64,000 bases of DNA from an uncultured Methanosarcinaceae archaeon (GCA_963833425.1 CAWHXP010000020.1:1-64000), one strand, 5' to 3'; positions 1,267 through 29,766 are shown, counted from the first letter of the stretch. Numbers and translations are program-made. Notes: a model not told the origin generated them from the sequence alone.

Positions 1267-1308
1267 GCTGCAGGCCTATTTCACCTACAGCTCACAAGAC
1301 TATTTTTG
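1267..1308 (+). ncRNA. Two-hairpin RNA family, degenerate core copy (A0)
   Basis: GCTGCAGG-cctatttca-CCTACAGC then tcACAAGActaTTTTTg, matching the family hairpin 2 and tail; upstream promoter not recognisable. Confidence 0.45.
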
Positions 1309-1362
1309 ATGGTTAATCCCGTTTTAATAAAAACAAGGTCTCAGTCACTTATTTTCACCGTT

Positions 1363-1590
1363 ATGGTTCGTAGGATCAGAACCACGTAATTTTAGTGCTA
1401 ATTAGTTTAAGTTAGTACTATTTAGAATATATACATAAAATATATAATAAATTATATCTAATTATAATTAAGGAATTTTTTAGTACCTTCAAACAGACTT
1501 AATTGACTGTGGCATTTCCTCCCACAGCACACAAGATAAACTTTTTGACATCTAGTAGTAGTCGATAATCTCAAGATCTTGAGGATTTCA
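1363..1590 (+). ncRNA. Promoter module + two-hairpin RNA (A1), leader of pentapeptide pseudogene
   Basis: CTAATTAG 1398, CTATTTAG 1418, TATA 1441; hairpin 1 AAGG..CCTT from 1470; hairpin 2 CTGTGG/CCACAG 1507-1527; ACAAGAT, T-tract 1542-1546; palindrome 1567-1587. Confidence 0.6.
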
Positions 1591-1624
1591 CAACAAATTC
1601 TTGGTACAGGGAAGGAGTCATGGC

Positions 1625-2071
1625 ATGTCTGACATTAAAGAAGCCAATTTTAAAGCGGATAACAGCGAAAAGGCTGACCTTAAAGGAACTAATCCCCTAG
1701 AGGCTAATCTTGAAGGTGCTAATTTTGAGGGGGTCAATCTTGAAAAGGCTCATCTTGAGGAGGCTAATCTTAAAAAACTAAACTTCAAGGAGCTAATCTT
1801 AGAGAAGCTAATCTTGAAGGTGCTAACCTTGAGGAGGCTAACCTTAAAAGAGCTAACCTTGTAGGAGTTGACCTTATAACAGCTAACCTTACATGGGCTA
1901 ACTTTGAGGGGGCTAACCTCAAAGGAGATTATCCTAAAGAAGATAACCTTACAGTGGCTCATTATTTAACATTTGACTAGTTTTCTAAAGTGAAAACCCT
2001 CCAGATACAAAATCAGGCGAATAGCTCCTAAAATCACTAACATAGAAATAATACGCCCTTTCAAACTGTAA
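1625..2071 (+). pseudogene. Pentapeptide-repeat protein, frameshifted
   Basis: A(N/D)L repeats from ATG 1625 (RBS AGGAG); A6 where the paralogue at 3405-3938 has A7 (near 1772) shifts the frame; end approximate. Confidence 0.75.
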
Positions 2072-2247
2072 TCAGGGTGTAGAATCCGGAATTTATACCT
2101 TATGGCTTTGAGTTTCTTCAAAATATATGAAAATGGAACACTTTAGTACATTATTGCAATCCAAAATAAGGGATGAAGCGGATGCCATGGCTCCGCAGAG
2201 AAAAATGAATCTGTCATTAGCAAATCAGACGGAAGGAGGAAGATAAC

Positions 2248-3231
2248 ATGATCTGCGGAGACCACGGAGAACTGTTCCAAAGGTATAAGAAAAGTCCTAT
2301 ACTTACTGCTGAAGATTGGCCGTATCAGGTACACTCAGTATTTAACCCGGCAGCTGCTATAGTTAATAGTATAACTCTATTACTGGTATGTGTCGAAGAT
2401 CACATGGGCTTTTCTCATTTTACGGTAGCCCGGAGTAAGAATGGAATTGATGGCTGGGAGATAGATAGCCAACCAACCTTTGCTCCAGATCCTATAAACT
2501 ACCCTGAAGAGATATATGGCATTGAAGATGCGCGTATAACTTACATTGATGAGATGGGAAAATGGGCCGTAGCATACACGGCTCTTTCTGATTCTGGTCA
2601 CTTAACAGCTCTTGCCTTTACAGAAGATTTCTGTAATTTTGATCGAGTAGGAGCTACCATGCCTCCTGAAAATAAAAATTCTGCTGTTTTTCCTGTAAGA
2701 TTTGATGGTATGTGGGCAATGTTACATCGGCCTGTACCTCGGATAAGTTCAAAGGCGAATATCTGGATATCCTTTTCTCAAGATATGAAGTACTGGGGAG
2801 AACATGAGGTTCTTCTGTATGCTCGGGAAGGCTGTGATGCCGACAAGATAGGTCTATCCCCCCCACCACTCCGCACTTCTGATGGATGGTTAATTATGTA
2901 CCATGGAGTACGCCAGATGACATCTAAATCCAGTTATAAAGCAAGTTATCGACTTGGATTGGCTCTTCTTGATCTTGAAAATCCCAGGAAAGTGCTTCAC
3001 AGATCTGAAGGATGGGTTTTCGGGCCTCGTGAAATGTATGAACGCAGTGGAGACGTTAATGATGTTGTTTTCCCTTGCGGGTGGGTTTTAGTGGATGATG
3101 AAATTCGCATTTATTATGGAAGTGAGGATGTTTCAGTATCAATTACCAGTGCAAAAATACACGATATCCTGGAGTGGATACGTAGGTACCCTGAGACACA
3201 ATGTCCTGATGGAATACTGCAGATGGTTTAA
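2248..3231 (+). CDS. Glycoside hydrolase family 130-like glycosidase/phosphorylase
   Basis: Motifs VFNPAA, GIEDARIT, NKNSAVFP, GWLIMYHGV, YRLGLALLDLENP, VVFPCG; RBS GGAGG. Confidence 0.85.
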   Translation: MICGDHGELFQRYKKSPILTAEDWPYQVHSVFNPAAAIVNSITLLLVCVEDHMGFSHFTVARSKNGIDGWEIDSQPTFAPDPINYPEEIYGIEDARITYIDEMGKWAVAYTALSDSGHLTALAFTEDFCNFDRVGATMPPENKNSAVFPVRFDGMWAMLHRPVPRISSKANIWISFSQDMKYWGEHEVLLYAREGCDADKIGLSPPPLRTSDGWLIMYHGVRQMTSKSSYKASYRLGLALLDLENPRKVLHRSEGWVFGPREMYERSGDVNDVVFPCGWVLVDDEIRIYYGSEDVSVSITSAKIHDILEWIRRYPETQCPDGILQMV

Positions 3232-3280
3232 AGAAAACTGGGTACTTTTCAGTGATCCAAAAAAAGGTGATACTAGATTA

Positions 3281-3371
3281 AAGGGGACTTGATAAACCTC
3301 TGATTTTCACGAGCCATTTATATACCATTCATAAGCATATGATGAAATTTAGAGTTTATCGAAATCTTCTA
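3281..3371. repeat. ~90-bp inverted-repeat element (MITE-like)
   Basis: GATAAAC...GTTTATCGAAAT termini; interior similar to the copy at 12731. Confidence 0.55.
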
Positions 3372-3404
3372 TAATCCTAGTTTCTCTAAAGATTGTTTTC
3401 TGCA

Positions 3405-3938
3405 TTAGGCTCCTAAAAGGTTGCTCTGATATTCAAGAAAATGCTGGTCTAGTGATTTAAAAAGGAACGGAAACTCTTCTTTTAGTCTTATGAGAAATTT
3501 TTCATCTAATTTTGCATTATAAAGTGTTTTCACTTTAGATAGCTGGTCAATTGATAAATTAAGAGCCTCTTTAAGGTTAGCTCCTTCAAGATCAGCTACT
3601 TGAAGGTTAGCCTTTATGAGGTTAGTTCCTTTAAGATTAGCTCCTTTGAGGTTAGCCCCCTCAAAGTTAGCCCACGTAAGGTTAGCTGTTATAAGGTCAA
3701 CTCCTACAAGGTTAGCTCTTTTAAGGTTAGCCTCCTCAAGGTTAGCACCTTCAAGATTAGCTTCTCTAAGATTAGCTCCTTGAAGTTTAGTTTTTTTAAG
3801 ATTAGCCTCCTCAAGGTTAGCCCATGCAAGGTTAGCCGTTATAAGATCAACCCCAACAAGGTTAGCTCTTTTAAGGTTAGCTTCTTGAAGGTTAGTTTCC
3901 TTAAAGTCGAATATGCCATAATCCCTTCCCTTTATCAC
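3405..3938 (-). CDS. Pentapeptide-repeat protein
   Basis: Continuous ANL/ADL pentapeptide repeats; C-terminal LSKVKTL cap shared with 22561-23082. Confidence 0.85.
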
Positions 3939-3953
3939 GATATTTTTTAGTTT

Positions 3954-4397
3954 TTACTTCTTCAGCGGGATGTACCCAACTTTACTCACAATAGCCTGCC
4001 CTTTCTGGCTCAACTCAAAGTTCATGAATTCTTTTGTGAGTCCCGATGGTTCCCCATTTGTATAGATCTGGAGTGTTCTGGAGAGGGGGTATTCACCACT
4101 TAGAATAGTTTTCTGAGTTGGCAATACAGAGCCTTTTTCGTTATCCAGGCTTAAGACCTTTATGTCTTTATTGACGTATGCAAAGCCAATGTACCCGATT
4201 GCGTTGGGGTTTTGAGTTACTTCACTGACTATTCCACCAGTAGTAGCTTGGGTAAGCACATCAGGTCGGTATTCATTAAATCCAACATCTTTCTTGAAGT
4301 CTGCATAAGTTCCAGAACTACTGTCCCTAGAAATTATGGCTATTGATTTGTCTTCACCACCAACTTGCTTTCAGTTACTGATACTACCATCATAGAA
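3954..4397 (-). pseudogene. pstS: C-terminal remnant of phosphate-binding protein PstS
   Basis: ISN*KQVGG (TGG to TGA), SRDSSSGT, NAIGYIG, GEYPLSRTL; N-terminal half absent. Confidence 0.8.
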
Positions 4398-5393: not shown

Positions 5394-7227
5394 ATGGAAA
5401 TCGAATCAAAGTTTCTGGTATTAGGCTAAACAGATATTCCAGACCTTGAAGCGCTATCTCAACTGAGAGATTATTCGATTTCCAAAGCTGCAGTACAGCT
5501 GATAGAAGATACATTCCTGGACACAAAAAAAATGTCTTTAATGGCTGAGGGTTATTATCTGCGACTACGAAAAGAGATCGGACAAGAAGGACAGTGGTTG
5601 ACCATCAAGAGCCTGGGTGGGTTTGAAGCTGGAGTGCACAGAAGAGAAGAATATACTAGTTTTCTACCAAAAGAGGTTTCTGCCTTTGAATGTCCAGATA
5701 TCAGGATAAAGGAACTAATTTTCGACCTTAGTTCAGGATTTGACTTGTTGCCATTCCTGAAACTTAAACAAAAAAGGGTTTTACACCAGGTGAAACTGGG
5801 CGAAAGACAAATAGCCGAATTATCTTTGGATCATGTGAGCCTTAAAAGCGAAAAAAGGGAAAAGCTCTACAACGAACTTGAAGTTGAACTGAAGACGGAA
5901 GGGACATCTCAAGATTTGCAGGCTATTGTGGAATACCTAATTGAAAATTACAACCTTGCAGAAAATCCCCTTTCCAAATTCGAAAGAGCTCTTCTCTTCA
6001 AAGATAATCTACCGGAAAAAAAACCATTTTAAGCTTCAAGGAAAGAGCTTTTTGTATGCAGCTTTCAGACCAAGAAAAGAAAGTGAATTATGGGAATACC
6101 TTTTTGGCACAAAACTCTTCTTCAAACATGGAGAAAAAATTGATGAAGTTTGGTTAATTGAAAAAAGGCCAGAAGAATTTGGTGAAATAACTGAACAAAA
6201 GAATGAAAGTAAAAAAGAGAAAGGAGATCTAAAATTTGCAGTTAGACCCGAACACTCTATGACTATGGTAGCTCATAAGGTTTTTTCCCAGCAGTTTGCC
6301 AGAATGCTTGCACATGAGAAAGGGACTCGGAAGGGAGAAAATATAGAAGAACTTCACGATATGAGGGTTGCGATCCGCAGGATGAGGGCTGCTGCAAAGA
6401 TCTTTGAAGTATATATTGATTCAGAAAAGCTTGGACCTCACCTGAAAGAACTCAGAAGTACCCTTGGAGAACTCCGGGATGTAAGGGATTTGGATGTTTT
6501 TCGGGAAAAAGCTGAAGAGTATCTAAAAAAACTTCCCACTGAGAACAAAAATGATCTTGAACCCCTATTTACTGTTCTTGCCGAAGAGAGGAAAAAAGCT
6601 CTGAAAAACATGCTTCTCTACATGGACAGTGAAAAATACGCTAATTTCAAAAAAAAGTTCTCAGATTTTCTTTCTGTTTCCGAATACTGGGCTCTGCCAA
6701 CTACAACCAGAAAAAACGACGCACTGCCACATCGAATTAAGGATGTGCTTCCTTCGATCTTATATTCCAGTTTCGCAGACATCAGTGCCTATTCTGAATG
6801 GGTAGAAGGACCATATGTCTCTGTAGAGAGACTGCATAGACTGAGGATTGCAGCCAAAGGACTGCGATATACACTTGAGTTCTTTGAAGACACGTTAGGA
6901 AAAGAAGCAGAAACAATGATCACCGAATTTAAAATTCTTCAGGATCATCTTGGAGATATACAAGACAATGTTGTTGCAATTGATTTGTTGAGATCTTATC
7001 TACAGACAGGAGATTGGGACCTTTCAGAAAGGCTGCAGTATTCCGGAGAAAAGAAAATTCCCGAATTCCTGAAAGGAGTAGAAGCCTACAAGACATATAG
7101 GGAAGAAGAACTCCACACACTACTCGATACTTTCCTAGAAGCCTGGATAAAAATCCAGAGCGAGGAGTTCATACAGAAAATTGAAAGCGCAATCAAAAAC
7201 CTGTATAAAGAGCCAATATTCTTATAA
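5394..7227 (+). pseudogene. CYTH-CHAD (triphosphate tunnel / polyphosphate-binding) protein, disrupted
   Basis: MEIESKF CYTH start at 5394 in frame with 5532 but with TAA at 5427; ELEVELK motif; frameshift near 6020; CHAD motifs LHDMRVAIRRMR, LHRLRIAAKGLRY, LQDHLG. Confidence 0.8.
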
Positions 7228-8119: not shown

Positions 8120-8158
8120 AATCTGGAAGGTCTATTTTTTAAATCGGTATTTTGAAGC

Positions 8159-10780: not shown

Positions 10781-11106
10781 AATTGGTGAAATTTTATTAA
10801 GCATCTGAACCTAGTTGGTGAAGTACCAAATAATGCTAAAATAATAAAGATGGCCTTGATGACGAATCAGTGAAGTACCATATTTTGTCATACTTCATAT
10901 AAATTGAGTTTATTGAGGTTTATATATAAAATTAGATGAATTCTCTGTTTTTGCGGTTTTTTGATGGACTTTGCGAAACTAAGTAATTTGTATATGGAGG
11001 ATAATATACAAATTTTTAATACTGTCCCAACATCGATATATTTTTTTAATTACATTGGTGGAACCATCTTTTATAATTCCTGTTCCCATCTTCTAAGGAC
11101 TAATTA

Positions 11107-11390
11107 CTAAATAGTTCATAATAGAAATAAATAAAGACTATACAAAAGGTATATAATAAAATAAATCTAACAATAAATTAAAGGTTCTTAAATACCTTTA
11201 CACAGAACTCTATGAGCTGCAGGTATATCTTTCCATGCTTTTTCAATGCAGTTCATAAGATTAACGTTTGGATATCTACCATCGTTGATGAGCACACTAT
11301 TTTGAGGATTTCACAAAGACAGCAACTGTAATATCTCCAAATAGATCTTCGAGGGTAGGTATGGAAAAGCCTGTATTCAGGATCATGAAA
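11107..11390 (+). ncRNA. Promoter module + two-hairpin RNA (A2), leader of response regulator gene
   Basis: CTAAATAG 11107, TATA 11150; AAAGGT/ACCTTT 11180-11199; GAGCTGCA/TGCAGTTC 11214-11254; downstream GAGGATTTCACA and CCTGTATTCAGG shared with A3. Confidence 0.55.
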
Positions 11391-11435: not shown

Positions 11436-11816
11436 ATGAAAGTACTACTTGTAGATGATGATCCAATATTTCTTGAACTGTCAAAGACTTTTCTTGAAGT
11501 ATTTCACGGAATAACATCCGATACTGTGAATTCTGCAAGGGAAGCACTCGCCAAATTGGAGAAAGATTCCTATGATGTGATAGTTTCGGATTACGATATG
11601 CCTTTTATTGATGGCATCACTTTCTTGAGAAGTATACGTAATAAGAAAATTAGCATTCCTTTTATTTTTTTTACTGGATTCGGAAAAGAAGAAATCATGC
11701 ACTTGGCAATAGAAAATGGTGCAAATTCTTTTATACATAAAACAGGTCACCTAAAAATCCAGTATTCAGAGCTGTCAAAGCAAATATGGCAGGTTGTAAG
11801 TAGTAGTACAGGTTAG
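11436..11816 (+). CDS. Stand-alone CheY-like response regulator receiver
   Basis: KVLLVDDD, VSDYDMP (phosphoacceptor Asp), conserved Thr and Lys. Confidence 0.9.
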   Translation: MKVLLVDDDPIFLELSKTFLEVFHGITSDTVNSAREALAKLEKDSYDVIVSDYDMPFIDGITFLRSIRNKKISIPFIFFTGFGKEEIMHLAIENGANSFIHKTGHLKIQYSELSKQIWQVVSSSTG

Positions 11817-11822
11817 CTAATA

Positions 11823-12452
11823 ACACATAAAAATCGATTTTAAAACTATCCACTACCGAAAAATGCAAGAAATGATCTATTGATAAGCTAAAAACTACAA
11901 GCTTGCTTTAGATTAATAGGAGATGAAAACCTTAATTCATCAGAATTTGCATCGATTATGCTTACAATAGTACAGAATATAGATGAATACGAAGATTCAG
12001 ATGCATACCACGAAAATTTAGTAGAACTAATGAGCAATGCGATTAAGTCTGTTACAGAGTAACTATAAAATAGTGACTGATAACTAAAATAACAAAATAT
12101 TCATGTTCCGGGGTCTTTGATCCCCTTTTGATTTATGACTTTTTGAAGCAGTAAGATGTAATTATTATACACGATTCTGAGTTTCTTTGGATCAGATCAT
12201 AAGCTGAGGGGATAATAAAGTAAATAAAATCTTTAAATTGGTGTACCAAACAAATGCTAACTGTGAAAAGACTAACTTTCTAGAACCAAACCTTGAAAGA
12301 GTCAATCTTACAAAGGCTAACATTAAAAGGTTTCTCCTAGATAAATACAAAGCAAGTCGTAAATAATGTCTTGAGAATGTAACCAAAAAGAGGTGAAGAT
12401 CCATTTGATTTTAAACAAACAAGTTTATTCAGTCCAATTTGCTTTTCTGTTT
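11823..12452 (+). repeat. ~620-bp direct repeat, copy 1
   Basis: Aligns by eye at high identity to 14038-14649; holds an ORF remnant (MLTIVQNIDEYEDSDAYHE..) and a pentapeptide remnant. Confidence 0.9.
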
Positions 12453-12730
12453 ACAAATCTAAATGTTGTTTCATTTCCATGATCATAATGTAGAATGCCC
12501 ATTGCTTTAGGTGTGGATACCATTCCTTATAGTCGTGATATGCAATATAACTAATCCTTTACATATCTATTTTTGACACAACTGAATGTAAAGTCATCAT
12601 CATTTACGATCGGTTATTGTTATTGTACACAATGGTGTTGCTGATGTTGTCAACAAGTCTCCAACCTCAATCCTCAAATTTTGATAGTATTATAAATGTT
12701 TAATTGCCTAAATACAACTTTAAACCACCG

Positions 12731-14037: not shown

Positions 14038-14649
14038 GCACATAAAATTCGATTTTGAAACTAGCCCTGCCGAAAAATGCAATAATTGGTCTATTGATAA
14101 GCTGAAAACTACAAGCTTGCTTTAGAGTAACAGGAGAGGAAAAACCTGAATTCACCAGAATTTGCATCGATTATGCTTACAATAGTACAGAATATAGATG
14201 AATACGAAGATTCAGATGCATACCACGAAACTTTAGTAGAACTAATGAGCAATGCGATTAAGTTTGTTACAGAGTAACTATAAAATAGTGACTGATAACT
14301 AAAATAACAAAATATTCATGTTAGGGTCTTCGATTCCCTTTTGATTTATGACTTTTTGAAGCAGTAAGATTAATTATTATACACAATTCTGAGTTTCTTT
14401 GGATCAGATAATAAGCTGAGGGGATAATAAAGTAAATAAAATCTTCAAATTGATGCACCAAACAAATGCTAACCTTCAAGAACCAAACCTTGAAAAAGTT
14501 AATCTTACAAAGGCAGCATTAAAAGGGTTCTCCTGGATAAATATAACGAAAGTCGTAACGATTGTCTTGAGAATATAATCGAAAAGAGGTGAAAACCCAT
14601 TTTATTTTAAACAAACACGTTTTTCCAGCCCAATTTGCTTTTATGTTTT
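14038..14649 (+). repeat. ~620-bp direct repeat, copy 2
   Basis: Paralogue of 11823-12452; abuts array unit B1. Confidence 0.9.
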
Positions 14650-14651
14650 TA

Positions 14652-14792
14652 AATATAAATGTAATTAAATCTAGTTATATTTCATTGGCTCTCAAAACCT
14701 TAAACGGATTCTCTATCAAATTGCAGACAACGACTCCCTGAGTCACAAAATCAACTTTTTTGACATTTTAGATCAACAGGATCCCCTAAGCT
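14652..14792 (+). ncRNA. Two-hairpin RNA family, array unit B1 (degenerate)
   Basis: TATA-like ~14652; ACCTT ~14697-14701; TTGCAGAcaacgactcCCTGAGT; CACAAAATCAACTTTTTTGACATTTTAGATC tail. Confidence 0.5.
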
Positions 14793-14915
14793 AATAAAAT
14801 AAAAGAGCTCTCATTTTGGGATTTGAGTAATAATCTATCAATATTATCTCTTTGTGTTCATATAACTCTGCAAAAGTTTGCTGCGGATACTGGTGCAAGG
14901 ACATTAGATAGCCCA

Positions 14916-15120
14916 AAGATTAGGACTGCATAATTTTCTTACTATTTAGTTTAATTAGTGCTATTTAGGATATATGCAAAAGATATATAACAAATCAAAC
15001 AGAGTTTTAATTAATAGATTTCCCCACCTTCTGTAGATTTTCCATTGGGCTGTAGGTAATTCCCACCACAGCTCATAAGACCAACTTTTCTGATATTTTA
15101 GATCGCCTGCTCACCTAAGC
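14916..15120 (+). ncRNA. Promoter module + two-hairpin RNA, array unit B2
   Basis: GATTAGGACTGCATAATTTT box; CTATTTAG at 14942 and 14961; TATA 14984; GGGCTGTAGG/CCACAGCTC 15047-15074; ATAAGACCAACTTTT. Confidence 0.6.
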
Positions 15121-15296
15121 TAATTAAATAAAGTAGATAAGCCCCATTCTGGGAGATTTAAGGCATTTACTTGAGTAGGACCGGGGTATTTTTTTCATTG
15201 GGTAGATTATAACCATGTTGTAGGGGCTGAGAATTAATCAGTTCATAATGAGCTTGATTGGCTTCATCATGAAAGCAAGGATGTCTAATACAAATA

Positions 15297-15474
15297 CTAA
15301 TTAGTTAAGGTTATTACTATTTAGTATATGTGCAAAAACTATATAATAAATCAAATATGATATAATTCATAGGTATTACTCATACCTTGCAGTAGACTTT
15401 CCGACAAGCTGCAGGCATCTCTTCACCTGCAGCCAAGAAGGTCAACTTTTTGGCATCTAGGATCAGCTAGATCA
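15297..15474 (+). ncRNA. Promoter module + two-hairpin RNA, array unit B3
   Basis: CTAATTAG 15297, CTATTTAG 15317, TATA 15340; AGGTAT/ATACCT 15371-15387; perfect GCTGCAGG/CCTGCAGC 15408-15433; T-tract 15447-15451; GATCAGCTAGATCA. Confidence 0.65.
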
Positions 15475-15924
15475 TTTAAATTGATAAAAAAGCTAAGTAA
15501 TTTATGGCTTTCGACGATGCAGTGGTTGTTATTTACATGCTCAATGACAAAATTAAGGTGAAGCAAGCTGTACATCTTATGGTTAAAGGCATGGTTGGAG
15601 GTGCATTTTTGGGGATCTTGATAGAAATGTTTACTTTGTTTCTCTTCGCGAAATGGGCTGAAGACCAGGCACTAGATAAATTAAACAAGTTCAAAGAAAT
15701 GATAAAATAAAAGTCAGCCCACCGAAATTTGCTCAATTAATCTTTATGAAAGCTACTATTGAGAGTGTTTTTCGCGAGCTGAATAATTTGCTTCTCCTGA
15801 AAATAATTCTCAGTCCATGAACGTTTTTAGGTTCAAGATTTCACAGAAAAAGTGGCATAATGTCAATCTAATTAATTAAATTAAATCACAATCATAAATG
15901 GAAAAATCCCAAAAGGTTGTTGTC

Positions 15925-16012
15925 ATGGTTCATAAGATTAGGATTACATGCATCTAGTAATATTTAGTTATATTTGTTAATATATAGAATATTTGCAAAA
16001 GGTATATATTTA
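15925..16012 (+). promoter_or_regulatory. Promoter-only copy of the conserved module
   Basis: ATGGTTCATAAGATTAGGATTACAT..TATTTAGTT..TATATAGAATATTTGCAAAAGG-TATATATT; no hairpin RNA follows. Confidence 0.55.
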
Positions 16013-16242
16013 ATCATATCCAGCTAATATATTATGATATATAAATACACTATAACATAAATCCTGGAATAAAATTTTTTAGTGTAACTATATATCACTG
16101 TGTATCTGAAGATGAAAGTTTATCAAGGAGCTTAATAATAGATACCCCAAGCAGAAGGATCTTAGACCCTTATTTACTCAATCTTGAGATAATAAATCTT
16201 AAGTAAGGCTTTATATTACATAGGTTCCTATTCGTGGAGCGT

Positions 16243-16669
16243 CCCGTAGGCAAGTTAAATGTATTCTGTATATAAGGGACCAGCACAATGAGCCCGAAGA
16301 ATCCAAATACAACAGAAGGAATCCCTGCGAGAATCTCGATAAAGGGTTTCAAGAAATCTGCAACTTTAAGATGTGAGACCTCGGAAATGTATACTGCACA
16401 AGCGATTCCCAAAGGCACTGAAAAAATAACTGAGCCAGCAGTCACGAGAAGGGAACCAAGAAATAAAGGTAGTAACCCAAATTGCTGGTGTATGGATGTT
16501 GGTACCACAATTTTCCTGTGAGAAAGTCCAATATTGAAATTTTTTTAAACAAAAGTAAACTGTCGCTGAATATAAAATAGCACATAAGTAATAGGACGAT
16601 GACCGTAAGGGCACTGACTAAGAAGAATCTTGATTCGATTACTTTTTCCTTATGATTCCTGTTAAACAT
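16243..16669 (-). pseudogene. pstC: Phosphate ABC permease PstC, frameshifted and truncated
   Basis: FGLLPL..GSLLVT..VPLGIACAVYISE, IEILAGIPSVVFGFFG; similarity lost after NLPTG. Confidence 0.85.
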
Positions 16670-16782
16670 ATTTCCCTCTTGAAAATAACCTTTACTTATT
16701 TGCTTCGTTAGTGGGAAGCACTTATTCTACTTACCAAATCTATAATTAAATTTCCGTGGAATTCGATGATCAAAAAATTTGC

Positions 16783-17432
16783 TTAGTTTAGTTTGACATG
16801 CTCAGAGGTAACAAGATAAACTACACTTTCACAGATATTACAACAGTGATCAGCAATCCTTTCAATGTTACGAATCATGAGAAATCGATATGTAGATATG
16901 GAAATGATGTTTCGATCTTTCGTCATCATTTCTATCAACTCACTCCAAACTGTATAAAAAAGTTCATCTACATCATCAGCTCTAGCTGCTGTTGTCCTTG
17001 CGAGTTCTTGGTCACGCATCTCGAACGCCCTGAGGGAATTCTCAAGCATGTATGCTGCAATGTCTGCCATTTTTTTCGAGTCTACGGGAGGTTTTATATG
17101 GCTGCTCTCGATTTTTCCGGGAATTTTTGCAATGTTTATTGATAGCCCCATAATCCTTTTGAGATTTGCTGAAATTTTGAGAGCGGATATTACAAGCCGA
17201 AGATCATGGCTATTGGCTGTTGAAGTGCGAGTAAATCAAGGATGGAAACCTCAATTTCTTCTTCAAATTCATCCACTTTTGCTTCAAAGGCAAGTATTTT
17301 TTCAGCCATTTCGACATCTAAATCTATAACTGCAATCATCGAATCTCTGAAGATCAATTCAACCGTCTTTCCAAATGAAAGTACCGACTCCTTGAGCATG
17401 TCCAAATGTCTTAAATATCGTTCTCGAGGCAT
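16783..17432 (-). pseudogene. phoU: Phosphate regulator PhoU, frameshifted
   Basis: LLALQQPIA then shift near 17205; DDVDELF, IERIADHCCNICESVVY. Confidence 0.85.
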
Positions 17433-17439
17433 TTTTCAA

Positions 17440-18237
17440 TCACCCAAACCTGCCAGTAATGTAATCCTCAGTGAGTTTTTCTCGAGGATTATGAAAAATC
17501 TTTCTGGTTTGGTCGAATTCAACCAATTCCCCCATTAAGAAAAAGCCCGTATAGTCTGATACTCTGGCTGCTTGTTGCATATTATGAGTTACAATTACTA
17601 TAGTATAATCTTTTTTAAGATCCATGATAAGTTCTTCAATCTTTGAAGTGGAAATCGGATCAAGAGCGCTGCATGGTTCATCTAAAAGAATAACTGTGGG
17701 CCTTACTGCAAGGGTCCTGGCTATGCAAAGCCTCTGCTGCTGCCCTCCACTCAGGGAAAGCGCAGGAGATTTGAGCCTTGATGATGTTTCGTCCCAGAGT
17801 GCAGCCGACTGAAGGGAACTCTTGACAAGATTATCTATATCTTTTTTATTTACACCATGTATACGCGGCCCATATGCAATATTATCATAAATAGACATTG
17901 GAAAAGGGTTTGGTTTCTGGAAAACCATCCCTACATTTTTCCGGAGGTCAACAACATCTACGCCTTTTCCGTAGATATTCTTGCCTTCGATCAAAATTCT
18001 CCCTTCAACTTTGCAGTTTTTGATAAGATCGTTCATCCTATTTAAGCAACGAAGAAAAGTGGACTTGCCGCAACCGGAAGGGCCTATGAGAGCTGTTACT
18101 CCGTTTTTTGCAATCCGCATGGAGATATTCTTAAGAGCCTGTTTTTCCCCGTACCATAGATTAAGGTCTTCTATTTCTATATTGGGTTGAGACACGTTTT
18201 GGGGTTGATTTGGTATATTTAATAAAGTTTCAGTCAT
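17440..18237 (-). CDS. pstB: Phosphate ABC transporter ATP-binding protein
   Basis: [43 protein letters not shown] 18237 preferred over 18279. Confidence 0.95.
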
Positions 18238-18380
18238 CAAGAACCTCAATTTATTTATATTGTACAAAAATATGAACAAGTTCAGAATGAGTGGTTTAAT
18301 TTCCCAAATAAAGGAAATTGTTCTATAAATTTGGAGAAATTTTTATTGTTTTTCCAAAATTGGAGAAAAACCAGAAAAAA

Positions 18381-18653
18381 TTAAAAAAATCTTAAAATAT
18401 CATTTTTTAACATCTCAATTAGCTCGCTTTTTATAAGATTCTGCAGATACAAATGGTTATAGCACCTTTTTGTGCATCTTTCGTCCTTTAAGCACATGTT
18501 GACAAGTTTTTGATGTGTATTTTCGTCTATACATGCGATATCGAGGAGCACAAAAACTGCGGCAATTGCTAGTTCTATTTCTTTTATGAAATCAATATCC
18601 CATTTAACTTCTCCTGCGAATTCGTTAAGTTCAGGGTTTATGCTAAAATCCAA
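18381..18653 (-). CDS. Hypothetical protein (start uncertain)
   Basis: 90-aa ORF downstream of a promoter-module copy on the same strand. Confidence 0.4.
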   Translation of the reverse strand: MDFSINPELNEFAGEVKWDIDFIKEIELAIAAVFVLLDIACIDENTHQKLVNMCLKDERCTKRCYNHLYLQNLIKSELIEMLKNDILRFF

Positions 18654-18778: not shown

Positions 18779-18867
18779 ATTTAGTATATATTTTCTGTAT
18801 ATATTCTAAATAGTACTAACTTAAACTAATGACACTAAAATTACGTGGTCATGATCCCACAAACCAC
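18779..18867 (-). promoter_or_regulatory. Promoter-only copy of the conserved module
   Basis: Reverse complement ACCACGTAATTTTAGTGTCATTAGTTTAAGTTAGTACTATTTAGAATATATACAGAAAATATATACTAAAT is nearly identical to 1381-1452. Confidence 0.75.
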
Positions 18868-19135: not shown

Positions 19136-20537
19136 ATGCTACTTACCTATAAAATAAAGCATAATCGGGATTTTTCGGAGGAACTCCAAAAAGCTCGAAA
19201 GGTTGCTGAATTTTGTATCAAACATAGGATTCAAAATCGAAATCTTGATTCGCTTCCCACTCCAGAATCTGTTTCTTATGATTATAATTTTCCTGTTTCT
19301 CCTCTTCATTCAAAGCAATTTGGAAATTATGAGAAAAATCAGAACCAGAGGCATAGAAATAGGACGAAAACAAATTCTCGGTCTGTATCTGATTTATTTC
19401 CAATGTCTGATTTTCTTTATCCCGGGGATGTTAAGCACATAGGCTTGAAGTCAACGATTTCCAGCCAGATTCTTAGGAAATATTCCCGAAACCAGGACCT
19501 CAAATCCGTTAAGGATGTAAAATTAATTATTCCGTCGCAAGCTGTTAGTGTCTTAAAGAAAGAAAAAACTCTTATAATTCCTTGCTTGAAACTTCTACTT
19601 AACTACCATTTTTCCAATGATTTTAACAAAATTTCCCAGATAGAAATAGATCACATATATGCTTATGTGGCAGTTGTCTTTCCAAACGAAGAACTCAAAA
19701 GTTCCGAGCACTATATAGGAGTCGACCGCAATACCAGGAGTCATATTGCAGTTGTAGCAGACCCAGAGTCCGGTAAAATCTGGAAATTAGGTAAAATGCG
19801 CTACCACACACATAAAAAATACGAAAATATAAAAAAGAGACTTTATAATACGGGCAAATACGAACAACTAAAAGCTGTAAAAAACAGGGAAAAAAACATT
19901 ATAAATAATCTTAATCATCAGATTAGCCGAAAGATTGTGAATATTGCTCTGTATAATGGGTGTGGAATCAAACTCGAAGATTTAAATGGACTCAGAAAAC
20001 TCAATAGCAAAATTGGAGGTGTAGAAAATGGTGAGAAAAATAAACACGAAAACAAAAAAAGGGAACAGAAAAGAGACAAAGACAGAGAACAAAAAAATAA
20101 ACAAAAAAGCTATCAAAAACAAAAGCAAAATCCTCAAATATACGTGTTCAAGTGAATACTCCCTGAACAGCTGGTCTTTTCATCAACTTCATCAATTTAT
20201 TGAATATAAAGCCAGGCTGCTAGGAGTAGAGGTAGCTTATATTGATCCCCATGCTACTAGTAAGAGGTGTAGCCGCTGTGGACATACAGGCAACCGACAC
20301 AGCAAACAATTTGAATGTCCACACTGTGGTCATGTTGATCATGCCGATGTCAATGCCGCCTTTAACATAGCTTTGACGCCAAAAAGCAATGGCCAATTCT
20401 CTGCAGAAAGAGATGTAGGGAAAGGGAATACTGACACCCCTCTACGGATCCTGGACCGTGCAAATTTCGGTAAACGGATAGCCAGAAAAGAAACTTCTCC
20501 ACAGTTTGCGTGGGAAGTATGTCAGTTTTTAGCCTAA
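19136..20537 (+). pseudogene. tnpB: TnpB (IS200/IS605, no adjacent tnpA) with two insertions and one frameshift
   Basis: RuvC motifs YIGVDRN, IKLEDL, HADVNAAFNI; WSFHQL..FIEYKA; CSRCG/CPHCG zinc finger; frame change within 20028-20155. Confidence 0.85.
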
Positions 20538-22084: not shown

Positions 22085-22205
22085 GAAAAAATTGTTTTCT
22101 CAAAACCCTCCAAAAAAATGAGATTGATGGGCTTAGGGACTTATTTTCAAAAGAGAGCGAAATGAACCCAGAAGCCGCTTAGTCTTTAGGTGAGAGGTAG
22201 TTCAC
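22085..22205 (+). mobile_element. Solo IS200/IS605 right-end (omega-RNA region) remnant
   Basis: Homologous to reverse complement of ~8159-8270 (CGCTTAGTCTT..G.TGAG.G.TAGTTCA). Confidence 0.6.
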
Positions 22206-22219
22206 CTAAAGAGAAGGTA

Positions 22220-22490
22220 CTAATCAATTAGGTTATAACTATATATACTATATGCAAAAAATATATAAATTATTGAATCTCTTTATAATTTAGAGGTATT
22301 CAAGCACCTTTAAACATACCTTCTATCGGCTGCTGGTATCTCTTCACTTGCAGCCCACAAGATTAATTTTAGGACACTACTGTCGTTGATGATCACAAGA
22401 TCTAGAGGATTTCACATAGACCAGTAGATCTAATTAAATATGTATTTGAGGTTCAGGTAGGAAAAGTCCTGTATTCAGGAACATGATTAT
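22220..22490 (+). ncRNA. Promoter module + two-hairpin RNA (A3), leader of pentapeptide gene
   Basis: TATA 22262; AGAGGT/ACCTTT 22292-22311; GGCTGC/GCAGCC 22328-22355; ACAAGATT; downstream GAGGATTTCACA and CCTGTATTCAGG. Confidence 0.6.
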
Positions 22491-22560
22491 ATGGCTTCTT
22501 TTAATTCCCACTTGACACAAGACAAACAAAAATTTAGGGGTAAAAGAAAGAGGTTATGGC

Positions 22561-23082
22561 ATGAATGAGATTGAAGAAGCTAACTTTAACGAAGGTAACT
22601 TTGAAAGAGCTAACTTTAAAGAGGATAAACTTGAAAGATCTAGACTTATAAGAGCTGATTTTATAAAAGCTAACCTTAAAGAAGCCTACTTTGAAGGAGC
22701 TAATCTTAGGGAAGCTAATCTTGAAGGAGCTAATCTTGAGGGGGCTAACCTTAGAGAAACTAACCTTAAATGGTCTAACCTTAGAGGAGCTAACCTTCAT
22801 ATAGCTGATCTTAGAGAAGCCAATCTTAAAAAAACTAATCTTGAAAAAGCTAATCTCATAAGAGCTAACCTTATAAAGGCTAACCTTCAAGGGGCTAACC
22901 TTAGATGGGCTAACCTCGAAGGAACTAACCTTGAAGGAGCTAACTTTGAAGGAGCTAACCTTAGTGGGGCTCACTATTTATCATGTGGTCAGCTTTCTAA
23001 AGTGAAAACACTTCATAATACAAAATTAAATGGAGATATCCTCAAGTCATTAAAAGAGAAACATCCCACCCTTTTTGAATAA
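22561..23082 (+). CDS. Pentapeptide-repeat protein
   Basis: ANL/ANF repeats, RBS GAGGT, LSKVKTL cap. Confidence 0.9.
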   Translation: MNEIEEANFNEGNFERANFKEDKLERSRLIRADFIKANLKEAYFEGANLREANLEGANLEGANLRETNLKWSNLRGANLHIADLREANLKKTNLEKANLIRANLIKANLQGANLRWANLEGTNLEGANFEGANLSGAHYLSCGQLSKVKTLHNTKLNGDILKSLKEKHPTLFE

Positions 23083-24458: not shown

Positions 24459-25889
24459 TCAGTCATCAAGTCCCAGACGTTTCATGAAGTGATGGTACTG
24501 TTCCAATGGCAGCTGGGAATAGAAGGCTTGGGTTACAACTTCACTCAGGGAAGGGTGAATATCCATACTGCACATTATTGGTTCCATACTTCTTGATTCC
24601 GTATACATGAGAGGAATTATCTGGTGGATCAGGACTGAGGCATGAGGTCCTATAATATGGGCACCGAGAATTTGTTTCCCCTCTACATTCAAAATTACTT
24701 TTACAAAGTAATCTTTGATTTTCAAAGCTGTCCCCTTTGCAGTATCTTCAAAGAATTTGAGGCCTATGCTCACCCTATCCTCCCCATACTTTTCCACAGC
24801 CTCCTTCTCTCCCATACCTACCACGGCAATTTCAGGATAAGAAAATACTGCATGCGGTACAGCGTGGTAGTCTGTCTTCACTTTTTCTTTCAGGATGGCA
24901 TTCAGGTAAACTATCCTGGATTCATAGTTTCCAACGTGCTTGAGCAGATATTTCCCCGTTGCGTCGCCAAAAGCCCAGACATTTGGCTGAGATGTCTCGA
25001 GATACTCATTCACCAAAATCCAGCCCTTAACATCTGTTTTGATTTCGGTCCTTTCAGGATGAAGAATGTCGGCATTTGGAACTCTTCCAGTTGCTACGAG
25101 GATCTCATCTACAGTAATCTTTATTTCTTCTCCTGAATTTTTTTCATTTGCAACTATGGTCTTCTGCCTGTTACCTTCCTTTCTAACTTCTATAGCCTCA
25201 TAGTTTGTAAGGATCTTCATATATTCCGACATTTTTAACCTAGCAAGTTTGGAGATTTCTGGCTCTTCGTGCGGGAGAAAAATGGGATTTCTTCCAATTA
25301 CAGTGACTTCTGCTCCCATGGCAGAGAAAAAATGCCCATACTCAACTGCAATAGAACTCCCACCAAGAATTGCTAGACTTCTGGGACATTCATCAAGTTG
25401 GAGCACAGTGTCGCTTGTTAGATAACCAGTCTCTTCAAGCCTTTTAACAAGCGGGATGGCAGGTTTTGAACCAGTGCATAGGAAAATCATTTTTGAGTAA
25501 AGCTTTTTGTCGCCTACTTTTAAGGTATAAGGAGAAGTAAACTCTGCACTTTCATGGTAGTAGTCAATATTCGGGTTTCCGGTTACCCCCTCCAGAACCG
25601 CTTCTATATTTTCTCTTGTAATCCTTCGCATTCTTTCCATGATTGCAATGAAATCAATATCCCTTATTTCAGCCTTTATTCCAAAAAGAGATGCTGTTCC
25701 CAGTTCTCTGATAAGTTCCGCAGGATAAAGCAAAATTTTTGAAGGAATGCACCCCTTAGTAAGACAGATCCCACCGGGTTCGTCTTTATCGATAACAGCA
25801 ATTTTTATTTTTGGATTCGAATCTATAATATGGTTTATATAGTTCATTGCAGAACCGGTACCTATTACAATCAGGTCGTAATTTTCCAT
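24459..25889 (-). CDS. Dihydrolipoamide dehydrogenase-like pyridine nucleotide-disulfide oxidoreductase
   Basis: VIGTGSA, GGICLTKGCIPSK redox disulfide, WAFGD, IHPSLSE. Confidence 0.9.
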   Translation of the reverse strand: MENYDLIVIGTGSAMNYINHIIDSNPKIKIAVIDKDEPGGICLTKGCIPSKILLYPAELIRELGTASLFGIKAEIRDIDFIAIMERMRRITRENIEAVLEGVTGNPNIDYYHESAEFTSPYTLKVGDKKLYSKMIFLCTGSKPAIPLVKRLEETGYLTSDTVLQLDECPRSLAILGGSSIAVEYGHFFSAMGAEVTVIGRNPIFLPHEEPEISKLARLKMSEYMKILTNYEAIEVRKEGNRQKTIVANEKNSGEEIKITVDEILVATGRVPNADILHPERTEIKTDVKGWILVNEYLETSQPNVWAFGDATGKYLLKHVGNYESRIVYLNAILKEKVKTDYHAVPHAVFSYPEIAVVGMGEKEAVEKYGEDRVSIGLKFFEDTAKGTALKIKDYFVKVILNVEGKQILGAHIIGPHASVLIHQIIPLMYTESRSMEPIMCSMDIHPSLSEVVTQAFYSQLPLEQYHHFMKRLGLDD

Positions 25890-26324
25890 TAATTACTCTC
25901 CGCGATATAAAATTGTTTTATTGTCCCGGGAATCATATCGAAATAATTTCATATTTGCATTTAAAGTCAAGCTTATTCGTAATACAACTCTGCAAGTTGA
26001 TTTAATTTTAAAGCACGATCTAATTTGAAAAGTGTTCTCATTCTGGATCTTCGAGATTCTGTAGACCTTTGATCCTGCAAATGTATCCTAAGAGAGATGG
26101 AATCTAATCCTTGCCCAGACAACAGTAATGAATGACTTAGGCCTTATGAGCATCAATGAAGTATAAAAAATGGATCTTATAAGTTGTGGGTAAGATACGC
26201 TATCCATCGAAGAGCTCCTTGACAATTTTTCACTTTCAGACAAATAATTGCACTAAAACATTTTATTTCAGGATTTATGCCATAGTACATTTATGGATCA
26301 TGATATATTTGCTGAATAGGGTAT

Positions 26325-26408
26325 GATATCTATTTTTTGTATATATACTATATAGTAGTAACTTTAACTAATTAGCATCAAATATGCGTAATCCTAATCC
26401 CACGAAAC
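26325..26408 (-). promoter_or_regulatory. Promoter-only copy of the conserved module (TATA position reads TAGATATC)
   Basis: Reverse complement GTTTCGTGGGATTAGGATTACGCATATTTGATGCTAATTAGTTAAAGTTACTACTATATAGTATATATACAAAAAA. Confidence 0.65.
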
Positions 26409-27084: not shown

Positions 27085-27132
27085 TCTCCGAAAGGTGAAT
27101 GGATAATTTTCTATATAATAGGATGTTTATTT

Positions 27133-27600: not shown

Positions 27601-27726
27601 GGGAGTTCCTGCTATATCTAACGCACTCTTGAGGATGGACCATTGGGGATTTATCTATGAAAACTCCCTGATAAAGAGCAAAAAATGGATTTATCGTCAA
27701 GTACATACATTTTTCTACTAAACTTA

Positions 27727-27818
27727 AGAGTATTTTGATAAACCCCAATTTTGGGCTGGTTGGTTATAAAGCCTATATAAGCAACTTGTTGAAATCGGAA
27801 GTTTATCAAAATTTTCAA
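27727..27818. repeat. ~90-bp inverted-repeat element (MITE-like)
   Basis: ATTTTGATAAAC...GTTTATCAAAAT; both termini differ from the 13573 copy at the same paired position. Confidence 0.65.
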
Positions 27819-28248
27819 TAATCTATGGCTAATAAAGAAAACTCCGATGGATAAATTGGTTCTCAATCAGTTCCTTAAGGCGGGATTCATTTATAACAGT
27901 CATTTAAACCCAACAAAATTTGAAACCTCGGCTCTTTTGAAATTTGCAGATCAAGCGAATAATAATCCAGGATAGCTACCTTTTCAAGTAACAAACTTTA
28001 AAAGCTCGTTACGTTATAGTTACTATTTTAATTGTTTATCTAGAATATAAATATAAAGATAGCGTTATTTATATGAAAATTGTAGCTAACCAAAAATAGC
28101 GGTTCAAAAGACTAAATGAGAATATGAATAAACAGGCTGTACATATTCAAAGTTTGATCAAAGAAAATAGCAGGCTAAACATTAAGATACTTCTGGAAAA
28201 TGCAGAAAAAAGTAAACCTTGGTAGCGATTTTGTAAGTCCGATTATGA

Positions 28249-28672
28249 TTATACCAACGGATCAAACTTCGCTACAATTTGTTTCCTAAGTATATCTGCT
28301 TCCTTGACTGTTATCTCAACATTTTCGTTTTTATTCTTTGAAATAACATTTGTCTTCCTATATAGCCGCCTTCCAAATTCGTCAGGAAATCTTCGCTTCA
28401 AGACCCATAAACATATCCGAATGTTTCCAGCTTCAGCAGCTTCTTGAATGCTTTAGTAATTATCTAGCTCCATCAGCATTACATTTGTTAGTATGTTTAT
28501 AGAATTGGTAATATTTCCCAGATTTTTATGTTTTCAATTTATTCATCCAATCATTAAAAGTTTTATACGTGATTCCTGAAGCTTCGGAAGTAAGAGATTA
28601 TGTGAGTCCTAAAGCAATATTTTCACCGATTTGTTGCTGTATTTCTGGAGTTAATTTACAAGATCGAGCCAC
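28249..28672 (-). pseudogene. Phage-related HTH / terminase-small-subunit-like pseudogene (not in ORF track)
   Basis: Manual translation MARSCKLTPEIQQQIGENIALGLT*..ASGITYKTFNDW..QEAAEAGN..WVLKRRFPDEFG with several stops and a shift. Confidence 0.5.
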
Positions 28673-29180
28673 AAATTCATCGTTTTTATTTCTTTTAGCA
28701 GTTAATATTAGTGAATCTTATATTAATAGTTAGTTAGTTATCTCCTGTATAAACCGGGGTTTATACTCTTAAATCAAATAAGAGCCATTCTCAGACGTTT
28801 TAAGACGCTTTTTTGATTAAGGTAATGTATTATTCGTGGTACTTTCGATAAAAGTATCCCTAGTAGCCCCCATAATAAGTCATTGTTTGAACAAAAAATC
28901 CTCGTCATTTGACTTCTACATAACGGTAACTACCTACTCGATGTTTTTTTTCATAAATTTTTATTACTTTAGAACTATATAAATTTAGTTATTGATTGTA
29001 GAGAAAAATCTGAAACCGTGACTTATGATAAATATGGAGCAAAAATGATCGATTATAGGGCTATCTAAAGCACTTTCTTGAATGAGTTGGAGCTTATTCC
29101 CTTGGACGAATTACGCGCCTGTCGTAGGGCTTTGAGTTCAAGTCATTTAGTTACTGGCGTGGGAAAGGCTTCAGTCTATT

Positions 29181-29401
29181 ATAATTCATAAAATTAGGAC
29201 TACGTAATTTGAAAATAACAACTAGTTCATGATATCGCTATATATAATATTTGGAAAAACTATATATTAACTAAAATTTAAGTATAATTCAAGGTTTTCT
29301 GGAACCTTTAATTGGGCATTCTCTCAGGCTGCAGGCAACGACCCCTTGCAGCTACAAGATCAACTTTTTTGAAATTTAAGATCAGCCTAGCCACATAGGC
29401 T
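29181..29401 (+). ncRNA. Promoter module + two-hairpin RNA, array unit B4
   Basis: ATTAGGACTACGTAATTT box; TATA 29261; AAGGTT/AACCTT 29291-29308; GGCTGCAGG/CTTGCAGCT 29327-29353; ACAAGATCAACTTTTTT. Confidence 0.65.
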
Positions 29402-29552
29402 CATTTAATAAAGCAGTATAAGATCGATTGTGGGACTATTTAAGGTGTTTTTTAACAGGTTAGGATTTATTCTACCTTAAATAAATTATAAACATGCTAT
29501 TGAAGCTGAGAGGCAATCATTTATCGACTAGCATGGAACAGTTTTCTTATGT

Positions 29553-29766
29553 TATGATTGCGAGATCTGAACACGTGATTTTAAAATACTAATTAGTTTA
29601 AGGCTTACTATTTAGAGTATGTGGGAAGACTATAAAATAAATTAAATTTGGTTATTATTTAAAGGTATACCCTACCTTCAAACCATCCTTCTGTGTACTG
29701 CAGGCATTGACTCACCTGCAGTTAACAAAGATCACTTTTTTGGCATCTGAGATCAGCTGGATCACT
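29553..29766 (+). ncRNA. Promoter module + two-hairpin RNA, array unit B5
   Basis: CTAATTAG 29589, CTATTTAG 29608, TATA 29631; AAGGTA/TACCTT 29662-29678; perfect ACTGCAGG/CCTGCAGT 29697-29722; T6 29736-29741; GATCAGCTGGATCAC. Confidence 0.65.

Follow-up and report, generated by a model that had tools for sequence, protein, structure and literature searches.

The window analysed here, a 64,000-nucleotide (nt) stretch of DNA from an uncultured Methanosarcinaceae archaeon (GCA_963833425.1 CAWHXP010000020.1:1-64000; one strand, 5' to 3'), carries a family of repeated units in which a promoter is followed by two hairpins. The repeat family is real and multicopy, it has a promoter of its own, and both hairpins are conserved. 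Nine copies are present, all on the + strand, and we refer to them by the position of hairpin 2 (1267, 1507, 11214, 14721, 15047, 15408, 22328, 29327 and 29697). We tentatively favour, at somewhat less than an even chance, the view that they form a clade-restricted and co-induced RNA family with one regulator-dependent promoter, whose members would act as pyrimidine-tract riboregulators, either as free-standing RNAs or as leaders of messenger RNAs (mRNAs).

The two-hairpin units

An earlier, sequence-only reading of the window had placed nine copies at these sites and none after 30 kb, and both statements stand. Each copy was read in the sequence at its site, and an unfiltered search of both strands of the entire window with the covariance model R1 gave nine matches, all on the + strand between 1218 and 29757 (E 3e-18 to 3e-05). 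The nine match by construction, since the R1 alignment was built partly from them; because they were training copies, R1 is informative on the window only for the missing tenth copy and for the region after 30 kb. No tenth copy was found in the window, the next three R1 matches having E values of at least 0.09. A profile built from the nine copies gave 59 matches across the window and the fetched loci. The window has a G+C content of 35%. A chance origin is excluded, because the exact hairpin-2 pattern occurs twice in the window against 0 expected, and a 30-nt promoter pattern, with at most three mismatches, nine times against 0.03 expected.

The order of the elements is hairpin 1, a pyrimidine-rich linker, a GC-rich hairpin 2, an A-rich tail and an oligo-T run, i.e. 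an RNA of about 80-90 nt. Hairpin 1 has an AGGU/ACCU core and a loop of 3-21 nt, mostly 3-5 nt; the linker is 14-19 nt long; hairpin 2 (GCUGCAGG/CCUGCAGC) has 8-9 bp and a loop of 5-22 nt, and the conserved tail is close to ACAAGAUCAAC. The T-run begins 18-21 nt from the start of the 3' arm, 11-13 nt past hairpin 2. At this same position 32 of 55 copies have T5-T8, and the remaining ones have T3-T4 or an interrupted run; the T3-T4 runs are found notably in the long leaders of pentapeptide-repeat and response-regulator genes.

The common plan is followed by all nine window copies, but 1267 and 14721 are without a recognisable promoter module, so that the promoter cannot be ascribed to every copy as it had been. 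Similarly, the stems are not intact throughout: hairpin 2 of copy 14721 is broken and hairpin 1 of copy 15047 has a mismatch. The compensatory stem changes that had been proposed were seen again, i.e. ACTGCAGG/CCTGCAGT in the 29697 copy and CTGT/ACAG in the 1507 and 15047 copies. The claim that the family has been conserved amid decaying neighbours holds only in part, as two or three of its nine window copies are in decay too.

The units of an array lie 330-370 nt apart, and the homology spans the whole unit of about 330-370 nt, including approximately 150 nt past the T-run. In other words, the RNA is repeated as had been supposed, but not alone: the entire unit of about 350 nt is homologous and duplicated. 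The sequence 3' of the T-run is conserved in the free-standing copies, though without a consensus structure; a search for a third hairpin or a longer structure past the T-run in 10 free-standing copies recovered only hairpin 2. Lengthening hairpin 2 by three outer pairs was rejected, since these pair in just about half of the copies. No small open reading frame (ORF) within or after the free-standing units is common to homologous units. Complements of the tail occur 10 times on the minus strand of the window, including the own tails, and six times on the + strand, all beyond 33 kb; none is distinctive. The window contains 26 CTGCAG sites against about 6 expected, and avoidance of CTGCAG as a hint of restriction-modification was rejected on account of this excess.

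The promoter module

Box B is a perfect 10-bp palindrome (ACTAATTAGT). Box C (CTATTTAG) is a degenerate repeat of box B that starts 20-21 bp downstream, i.e. two helical turns away, and an A-rich stretch with TATATAA begins 23 bp past box C. The upstream alignment shows an additional conserved box near -100, upstream of box B. The spacing of the boxes is nearly invariant across the upstream regions that have modules. Of 53 distinct upstream regions, 24 have the three boxes in the expected order, 14 have box C and TATA, seven have TATA alone and eight have none, under the mismatch limits set for these tallies. The common design of the promoter implies a common regulator.

The sequence-only reading had pointed out that hairpin 1 follows the TATA element at the archaeal start-site distance in six copies, which agrees with our measurements: its AGGT lies 30-32 bp from TATA in the six copies of the window whose promoter matches exactly, and the 5' end of the hairpin-1 stem lies 28-30 bp past the start of TATA in 24 of the 24 copies carrying all three boxes. 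This placing agrees with that expected of an archaeal primary transcript, i.e. a TATA box with an A-rich upstream element about 25-30 bp before the start.

The module is not private to the two-hairpin RNA: a second leader family and a decayed pstB-phoU operon have it in front of them as well. The second leader, of about 150 nt, is unrelated to the two-hairpin RNA; on the minus strand its module is at 26326-26355 and the leader at 26326-26172, and on the + strand the module is at 15980-16009 and the leader at 16013-16156. With nhmmer this family was found in the two window copies and, among the loci collected from other genomes (L-numbers, see below), in L004, L071:3560-3701, L044:425-539 and 3687-3772, and L029:2538-2621. 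One of the L044 copies has a two-hairpin copy directly behind it. The decayed phosphate-transport operon (18653..16170, - strand) consists of an ORF of 90 amino acids (aa), an intact-looking pstB (NCBIfam match of 413 bits), a PhoU fragment and a PstC fragment.

A box like CTAATTAAAT, resembling an inverted box B, occurs about 45 nt past the T-run of free-standing units, e.g. at 15120-15136. Judging by its sequence, it could be a third site of the same regulator.

Relatives in other genomes

Relatives were gathered in one genome scan with the exact promoter pattern rather than the RNA, because the RNA sample is then not selected on its own sequence. The scan gave 74 loci, 30 of them from Methanosarcina, Methanosarcinaceae, Methanosarcinales or Methanolobus; the other 44, in bacteria and other archaea, match by chance through their AT-rich sequence. 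L003 and L045 were excluded as they overlap with other loci. R1 found 46 copies, which come from 23 loci of eight Methanosarcinaceae/Methanosarcinales assemblies; it gave no copy for the 44 unrelated loci, nor for L004, L007, L009, L028 and L039. As far as can be judged from these sequences, the family is restricted to one clade.

Arrays of 2-5 units are common in the loci. In the copy tree, which was read for its branching without inspection of support values, copies group by type across genomes and not by genome, and at least seven types are seen, each in 2-5 assemblies. The array of three units at 14673-15467 has syntenic counterparts in L067 and L071, which makes three species. Because the types are shared across genomes and this array across three species, the multicopy state is old and has persisted. 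The expectation that related genomes carry the family is borne out by these paralogue types, which are common to several species.

The suggested check against known families gave no match: Rfam 15 returned 0 matches for the whole window at gathering thresholds, and permissive scans (E <=10) of 14600-15520 and 22200-22570 gave only scattered low scores, mostly on the opposite strand.

Evidence for structure in the RNA

In the alignment fitted to the model, 82.2% of 893 cells pair, compared to 26-48% with slid partners; double changes are found in 12 of 17 pairs, and values as high as these arise in 0-1 of 500 column shuffles. In the unfitted MAFFT alignment 81.2% of the cells pair, and 4-96 of 500 shuffles reach the observed values, depending on the measure. 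A tree-aware test counted 17 same-branch co-substitutions in paired columns where 4.99 were expected, an excess matched by 0.28% of 5000 random column-pair sets.

Hairpin 2 has 62 G-U cells and 18 A-C cells (32 and 17 without the pair whose consensus is G-U), and this excess indicates an RNA of the + strand. The inner stem of hairpin 1 is extended by differing complementary sequences, with 0.94 extra pairs against 0.44 under the null (p 0.0002; 33 distinct inner sequences, 13 of 54 rows being dropped as their core was not matched by the pattern). RNAalifold alone recovers hairpin 2 in 10 free-standing copies and both hairpins in six leaders, and the RNAfold z-score is -2.2 or below in five of the nine window copies.

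Taken from the sequences, a constraint on the + strand hairpins is likely, a strong one for hairpin 2 and a moderate one for hairpin 1. The covariation itself gives no decisive verdict, because the stems vary too little. The compensatory changes claimed earlier stand in part: the shuffle and tree-aware tests are positive, but the signal is modest and a test based on mutual information is negative.

Pyrimidine tracts and a possible mechanism

The unpaired regions are rich in pyrimidines: in a genome of 35% G+C, C makes up 41% of loop 2, U 34% and G 4%, and loop 1 is 44% C. Pyrimidine tracts, defined as runs of at least 4 nt with at least two C, are present in loop 2 of 42 out of 54 copies, against 18% in the control, and in the linker of 35 out of 54, against 29%. 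For six pentapeptide leaders RNAalifold predicts a helix between the linker and the Shine-Dalgarno region of the gene itself; this helix has seven pairs, is kept in five of the six leaders, and shows zero double changes.

The favoured mechanism would be as follows. A dimeric transcription factor would bind the palindrome and its repeat and switch on all units together, and the inducing condition, judged from the neighbouring genes, may be phosphate or another nutrient or redox stress. Transcription would start a few nt before hairpin 1, which would shield the 5' end. In the free-standing units the RNA polymerase would halt at the T5-T8 run and a small RNA would be released; where the run is eroded to T3-T4 it would be read through, and the module would then serve as 5' leader in the mRNAs of pentapeptide-repeat and response-regulator genes. 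Single-stranded pyrimidine tracts in the linker and loop 2 could pair with purine-rich Shine-Dalgarno regions, in trans for the free-standing copies and in cis for the leaders, and so tune translation or mRNA stability.

A number of observations weigh against this proposal. The start site, the 3' end and the expression are all predictions from sequence. The link between promoter and RNA partly reflects the way the loci were collected, i.e. by the promoter pattern, though it is also present in array members that the pattern had not selected. Free-standing copies are about 85-90% conserved, like the flanking spacers, in an alignment of three close species read by eye, and the sole copy that stands out in conservation there is the gene-proximal one; some copies are in clear decay. 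The stems are nearly invariant while the loops drift, which fits protein recognition or recent duplication too. RNAalifold finds zero consensus pairs in the full MAFFT alignment of 54 sequences, probably because the variable loops misalign the arms; with mutual information and average-product correction the best proposed pair ranks 295th of 5092 column pairs, and hairpin 1 has no excess of G-U over A-C. Loop 1 has tracts in just 6 of 54 copies (control 3%), and only 3 of 54 copies have them in all three unpaired regions. Finally, duplex energies of the nine RNAs with 24 translation-start regions show no convincing specificity for the own gene, which ranks first for the two pentapeptide leaders (for one of them narrowly). 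With the response regulator it comes eighth of 24, with each of the two small ORFs close to last, and for the most part the energies reflect how strong the Shine-Dalgarno site is.

Alternative explanations

The main rival is a purely cis-acting 5' leader or attenuator, which we regard as somewhat unlikely. It would act by stabilising the 5' end, by partial termination at the T-run and by masking the ribosome-binding site, and the free-standing copies would be leftovers of genes lost from a decaying island. On sequence evidence, four or five of the nine window copies are indeed 5' leaders of genes, and many copies in the other loci are also found directly 5' of the same four gene types. Such gene-proximal copies are the best preserved, in agreement with the three-species comparison; gene fragments abound in the region, entire units and not just their RNAs are homologous, and the predicted linker-Shine-Dalgarno pairing in the pentapeptide leaders fits a cis role as well. 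For the same reason the description of the element as a self-contained small RNA (sRNA) of about 80 nt is only one possible reading, since five copies are directly upstream of genes and two leader types have T3-T4. However, the free-standing types are kept as distinct paralogues in 3-6 assemblies with structure-preserving changes, and neither a conserved ORF nor a recognisable gene remnant is found behind them. Every array unit keeps a full promoter and a T5-T8 run, which would be needless in the leader of one distal gene, and array copies mostly precede another unit instead of a conserved ORF, so that the element is not always part of a 5' untranslated region (5' UTR) as expected of a cis leader or riboswitch. 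Moreover, the 68-aa and 41-aa genes described below have no evident Shine-Dalgarno site to mask.

The second rival, which we hold to be distinctly improbable, is a promoter cassette without a role at the RNA level, i.e. a strong inducible promoter copied together with the initial transcribed region by tandem and segmental duplication, where the hairpins do no more than stabilise or end the transcript and are passengers in all other respects. The promoter is conserved at least as well as the RNA and serves other leaders and the pst operon; the units share about 350 nt of homology, several copies are decaying, and the information-theoretic covariation is weak. Against these stand the excess of same-branch co-substitutions, the G-U bias of hairpin 2, pyrimidine tracts that are 2-4-fold over the local controls, and the long retention of the paralogue types.

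A signal at the DNA level is very unlikely. The inverted repeats would be operators of a repressor or roadblock at and just past the transcription start; the arms are almost invariant, CTGCAG is itself palindromic, and hairpin 1 overlaps the predicted start, where archaeal repressors are commonly sited. But operators of fixed spacing fit poorly with the widely varying loop lengths (5-22 nt in hairpin 2, 3-21 nt in hairpin 1), changes in the arms keep the complementarity and not the palindrome of the arm itself (copies 1507, 15047 and 29697 and L044:2543), and the G-U to A-C ratio of hairpin 2 is 62:18.

The end of a miniature inverted-repeat element, an insertion sequence or another mobile element is barely credible, for although the family is dispersed, multicopy and confined to one clade, with TnpB fragments at 19136-20537 and an IS240-type transposase in L051, the units have no flanking terminal inverted repeats (the only inverted match being the AT-rich regulator-box motif), all nine copies share one orientation and stand in head-to-tail arrays upstream of genes, transposase neighbours are inconsistent, and blastn against plasmid and phage collections gave no match. 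The earlier statement that no ORF, transposase or terminal repeat explains the family is in keeping with this, as conserved ORFs and flanking inverted repeats were sought and none were found.

Individual copies and their neighbourhood

The features are collected in Table 1. Copies 1507, 22328, 11214, 15408 and 29697 lie 35-190 nt upstream of genes for a pentapeptide-repeat protein, a response-regulator receiver, a 68-aa membrane protein and a short ORF beginning MNTD, and these four gene types recur behind copies in other genomes. In the window, GGAGG- or AGGAAGG-type sites are found ahead of start codons; the 68-aa and 41-aa ORFs have no evident one.

Copy 15408 folds into the two hairpins in RNAfold, 0 of 200 shuffles being equally stable, and is 55 nt 5' of the 68-aa ORF (15504-15710); the copy has orthologues in L067 and L071. 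The minimum free energy fold of copy 29327 also has both hairpins, yet its z-score is just -0.96; its type is present in two other assemblies. In copy 29697 the outer pair of hairpin 2 is A-U, not G-C, and the copy is 41 nt 5' of the 41-aa ORF 29784-29909, longer homologues of which follow copies in L065 and L070. Copy 22328 forms the 5' part of the roughly 270-nt leader of the pentapeptide-repeat gene 22561-23082, a leader kept in five other loci. Copy 11214, in which the stem of hairpin 2 is extended and its loop measures 23 nt, is the leader of the response-regulator receiver gene 11436-11816; its orthologue at L067:545-662 has the same gene behind it. Copy 1507 has CUGUGG/CCACAG in hairpin 2 and a weak hairpin 1, and stands 5' of a truncated pentapeptide-repeat ORF (1601-1864, Pfam Pentapeptide). 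In copy 15047, whose type was found in five other assemblies, U-A replaces C-G in hairpin 2 next to a bulged A, and the mismatch of hairpin 1 is single. The two remaining copies are in decay and fold no better than shuffles. Copy 14721 has lost its promoter boxes along with an intact hairpin 2, and its orthologues in L067 and L071, likewise without the boxes, have different hairpin-2 lesions; copy 1267 has kept hairpin 2 and the tail, whereas hairpin 1 and, according to the upstream alignment, the promoter module are lost.

Table 1. Positions of the two-hairpin copies and of the promoter modules in the window. R1 scores are in bits and z-scores are from RNAfold.
Feature	Position	Strand	R1 span	R1 score	z	Basis or remark
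Copy 1267	1229..1308	+	1218-1326	37.1	-1.06	E 3e-05; decayed
Copy 1507	1471..1546	+	1460-1562	66.8	-0.56	T5
Copy 11214	11180..11271	+	11169-11286	66.1	-3.35	T3
Copy 14721	14684..14763	+	14673-14777	67.3	+0.08	decayed first unit of array
Copy 15047	15014..15092	+	15003-15107	77	-2.20	free-standing middle unit of three-unit array
Copy 15408	15369..15449	+	15358-15467	95.2	-4.41	hairpin 1 to T5 run; best preserved
Copy 22328	22292..22372	+	22281-22387	84.8	-2.78	T4 only
Copy 29327	29291..29372	+	29280-29386	91.9	-0.96	free-standing; T6; next unit follows
Copy 29697	29661..29743	+	29650-29757	84.5	-3.30	T6
Promoter module of copy 15408 (boxes B and C, A-rich stretch, TATATAA)	15296..15346	+				pattern search, alignment
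Equivalent promoter modules	1397-1447, 14940-14990, 22218-22268, 29217-29267, 29587-29637	+				pattern, alignment
Degenerate promoter module (copy 11214)	about 11102-11166	+				alignment
Promoter module without two-hairpin RNA	18784..18813	-				pattern search; 5' of 90-aa ORF, pstB and phoU/pstC fragments
Promoter module with second leader family	26172..26355	-				5' of dihydrolipoyl-dehydrogenase-like gene 25889..24459
Promoter module with second leader, further copy	15980-16156	+				module followed by leader

The neighbouring genes include several that are linked to phosphate (PstS, PstB, PhoU, Ppx/GppA, CYTH-CHAD, HAD phosphatases, ArsC-like, PLD and NUDIX genes), which hints at a phosphate or nutrient-stress regulon; likewise, we infer, and do not observe, the co-regulation of the copies and their link to stress. 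A PstS fragment is at 3954-4259 (- strand) and CYTH/CHAD genes are at 5532-7227.

Other features were noted in the window. A segmental duplication of about 600 nt (11853-12466 and 14067-14662, 85-98% identical, 2.2 kb apart) contains pentapeptide-repeat-like sequence and stops just 5' of the decayed 14721 copy. Two further repeats occur in two copies each, 13570-13664/27722-27816 (95 nt, 81%) and 3290-3357/12738-12805 (68 nt, 76%), downstream of arginine decarboxylase and ferritin-like genes and elsewhere. The TnpB-like gene, of the RNA-guided endonuclease family with a Cas12f-like TNB domain, is present as two ORFs (19136-20537, + strand); a TnpB-like neighbour is also found upstream of the orthologous pentapeptide unit in L018. 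The segment 33779-40647 contains a Prim-Pol fragment, several ORFs that match no family and, at 39430-40647 on the - strand, a tyrosine integrase carrying a zinc ribbon, and may be an integrated element. A search for tRNA genes as island borders found none anywhere in the window.

Relation to known systems and significance

The LhrC1-5 RNAs of Listeria monocytogenes are described as five copies under one response regulator, with CU-rich sites in a loop, the inter-stem stretch and the terminator loop (PMC4132741). As in LhrC and the RsaE-type C-rich-motif sRNAs of low-GC bacteria, there are homologous copies here whose own promoters would be under one regulator; as in LhrC, the predicted RNA is a G-poor two-stem-loop molecule with candidate CU-rich single-stranded sites, redundant in loop and inter-stem positions, and those of LhrC are described as binding a purine-rich region before start codons (PMC4132741). 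Several copies, each with a promoter of common design, are likewise found here, i.e. nine in the window and 46 related ones. On the other hand, the host is an archaeon, and there is no sequence or Rfam relationship. Compared with LhrC as described, the 3' end would be an oligo-T run 11-13 nt past hairpin 2, in place of a terminator hairpin joined directly to a U-tract; the motif is rare in loop 1, and some copies are mRNA leaders.

By analogy, the family may be what the multicopy anti-Shine-Dalgarno sRNAs of bacteria correspond to in archaea, with at least seven types long kept in a Methanosarcina clade and switched on together by one transcription factor through the palindromic box. Each would act both as a released RNA of about 80 nt and, where the oligo-T stop is eroded, as a self-masking leader, and their tracts would mimic 16S rRNA and broadly damp translation; we consider this extended version rather unlikely. 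The anti-Shine-Dalgarno end of 16S rRNA contains CCUCC, and the ACCUUCU-like linker and the UCAC/CCUC-like tracts of loop 2 would imitate it; the family would then possibly be the RNA arm of a phosphate or nutrient-stress regulon. A likeness of hairpin 2 or the downstream motif to the 3' end of 16S rRNA was dropped, the permissive Rfam scans having given no match to an rRNA model.

Among the sRNAs of Methanosarcina mazei, sRNA154 is conserved in Methanosarcina and has two stem-loops with an anti-ribosome-binding-site sequence in loop 2, and sRNA41 masks ribosome-binding sites (PMC5867862); sRNA154, sRNA41 and sRNA162 are described as single nitrogen-regulated RNAs (PMC5867862, PMC4152357). They come from the same genus-level host group, and sRNA154 shares the two stem-loops. 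Going by their descriptions, these RNAs probably differ from the present family, which is dispersed or tandem and multicopy, with a common promoter.

Attenuating or riboswitch-type leaders are similar in that the element is found in the 5' UTR of several genes, with a structure and then a termination signal before the coding region. Here, however, it is the stems that are fixed, and loops and linker differ between copies in both length and sequence, the reverse of what a ligand-binding pocket would show; many copies have no gene behind them, and every copy has its own promoter.

A limited literature search found nothing relevant on a described multicopy Methanosarcina sRNA, a link to the phosphate regulon, 'mobile promoters' or stress-induced pentapeptide-repeat genes, and, within the sources consulted, no archaeal sRNA family that is multicopy with a common dedicated promoter. 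The sequences are consistent with a regulatory small RNA or leader family, the novelty of which would rest on the multicopy, common-promoter design in an archaeon.

To our knowledge, very few archaeal small RNAs have a known mechanism. If expressed, the family would offer a compact regulon, i.e. one promoter design, a candidate transcription-factor site and a handful of recurrent target genes. It would also provide a natural set of variants of one module, released as RNA or kept as an mRNA leader according to the length of the oligo-T run, which bears directly on regulatory termination in archaea, and its covariance model could be used at once to annotate Methanosarcina genomes of peat, fen and Antarctic origin. 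If not expressed, the family would still represent a promoter cassette whose duplication within a decaying island of the genome is striking.

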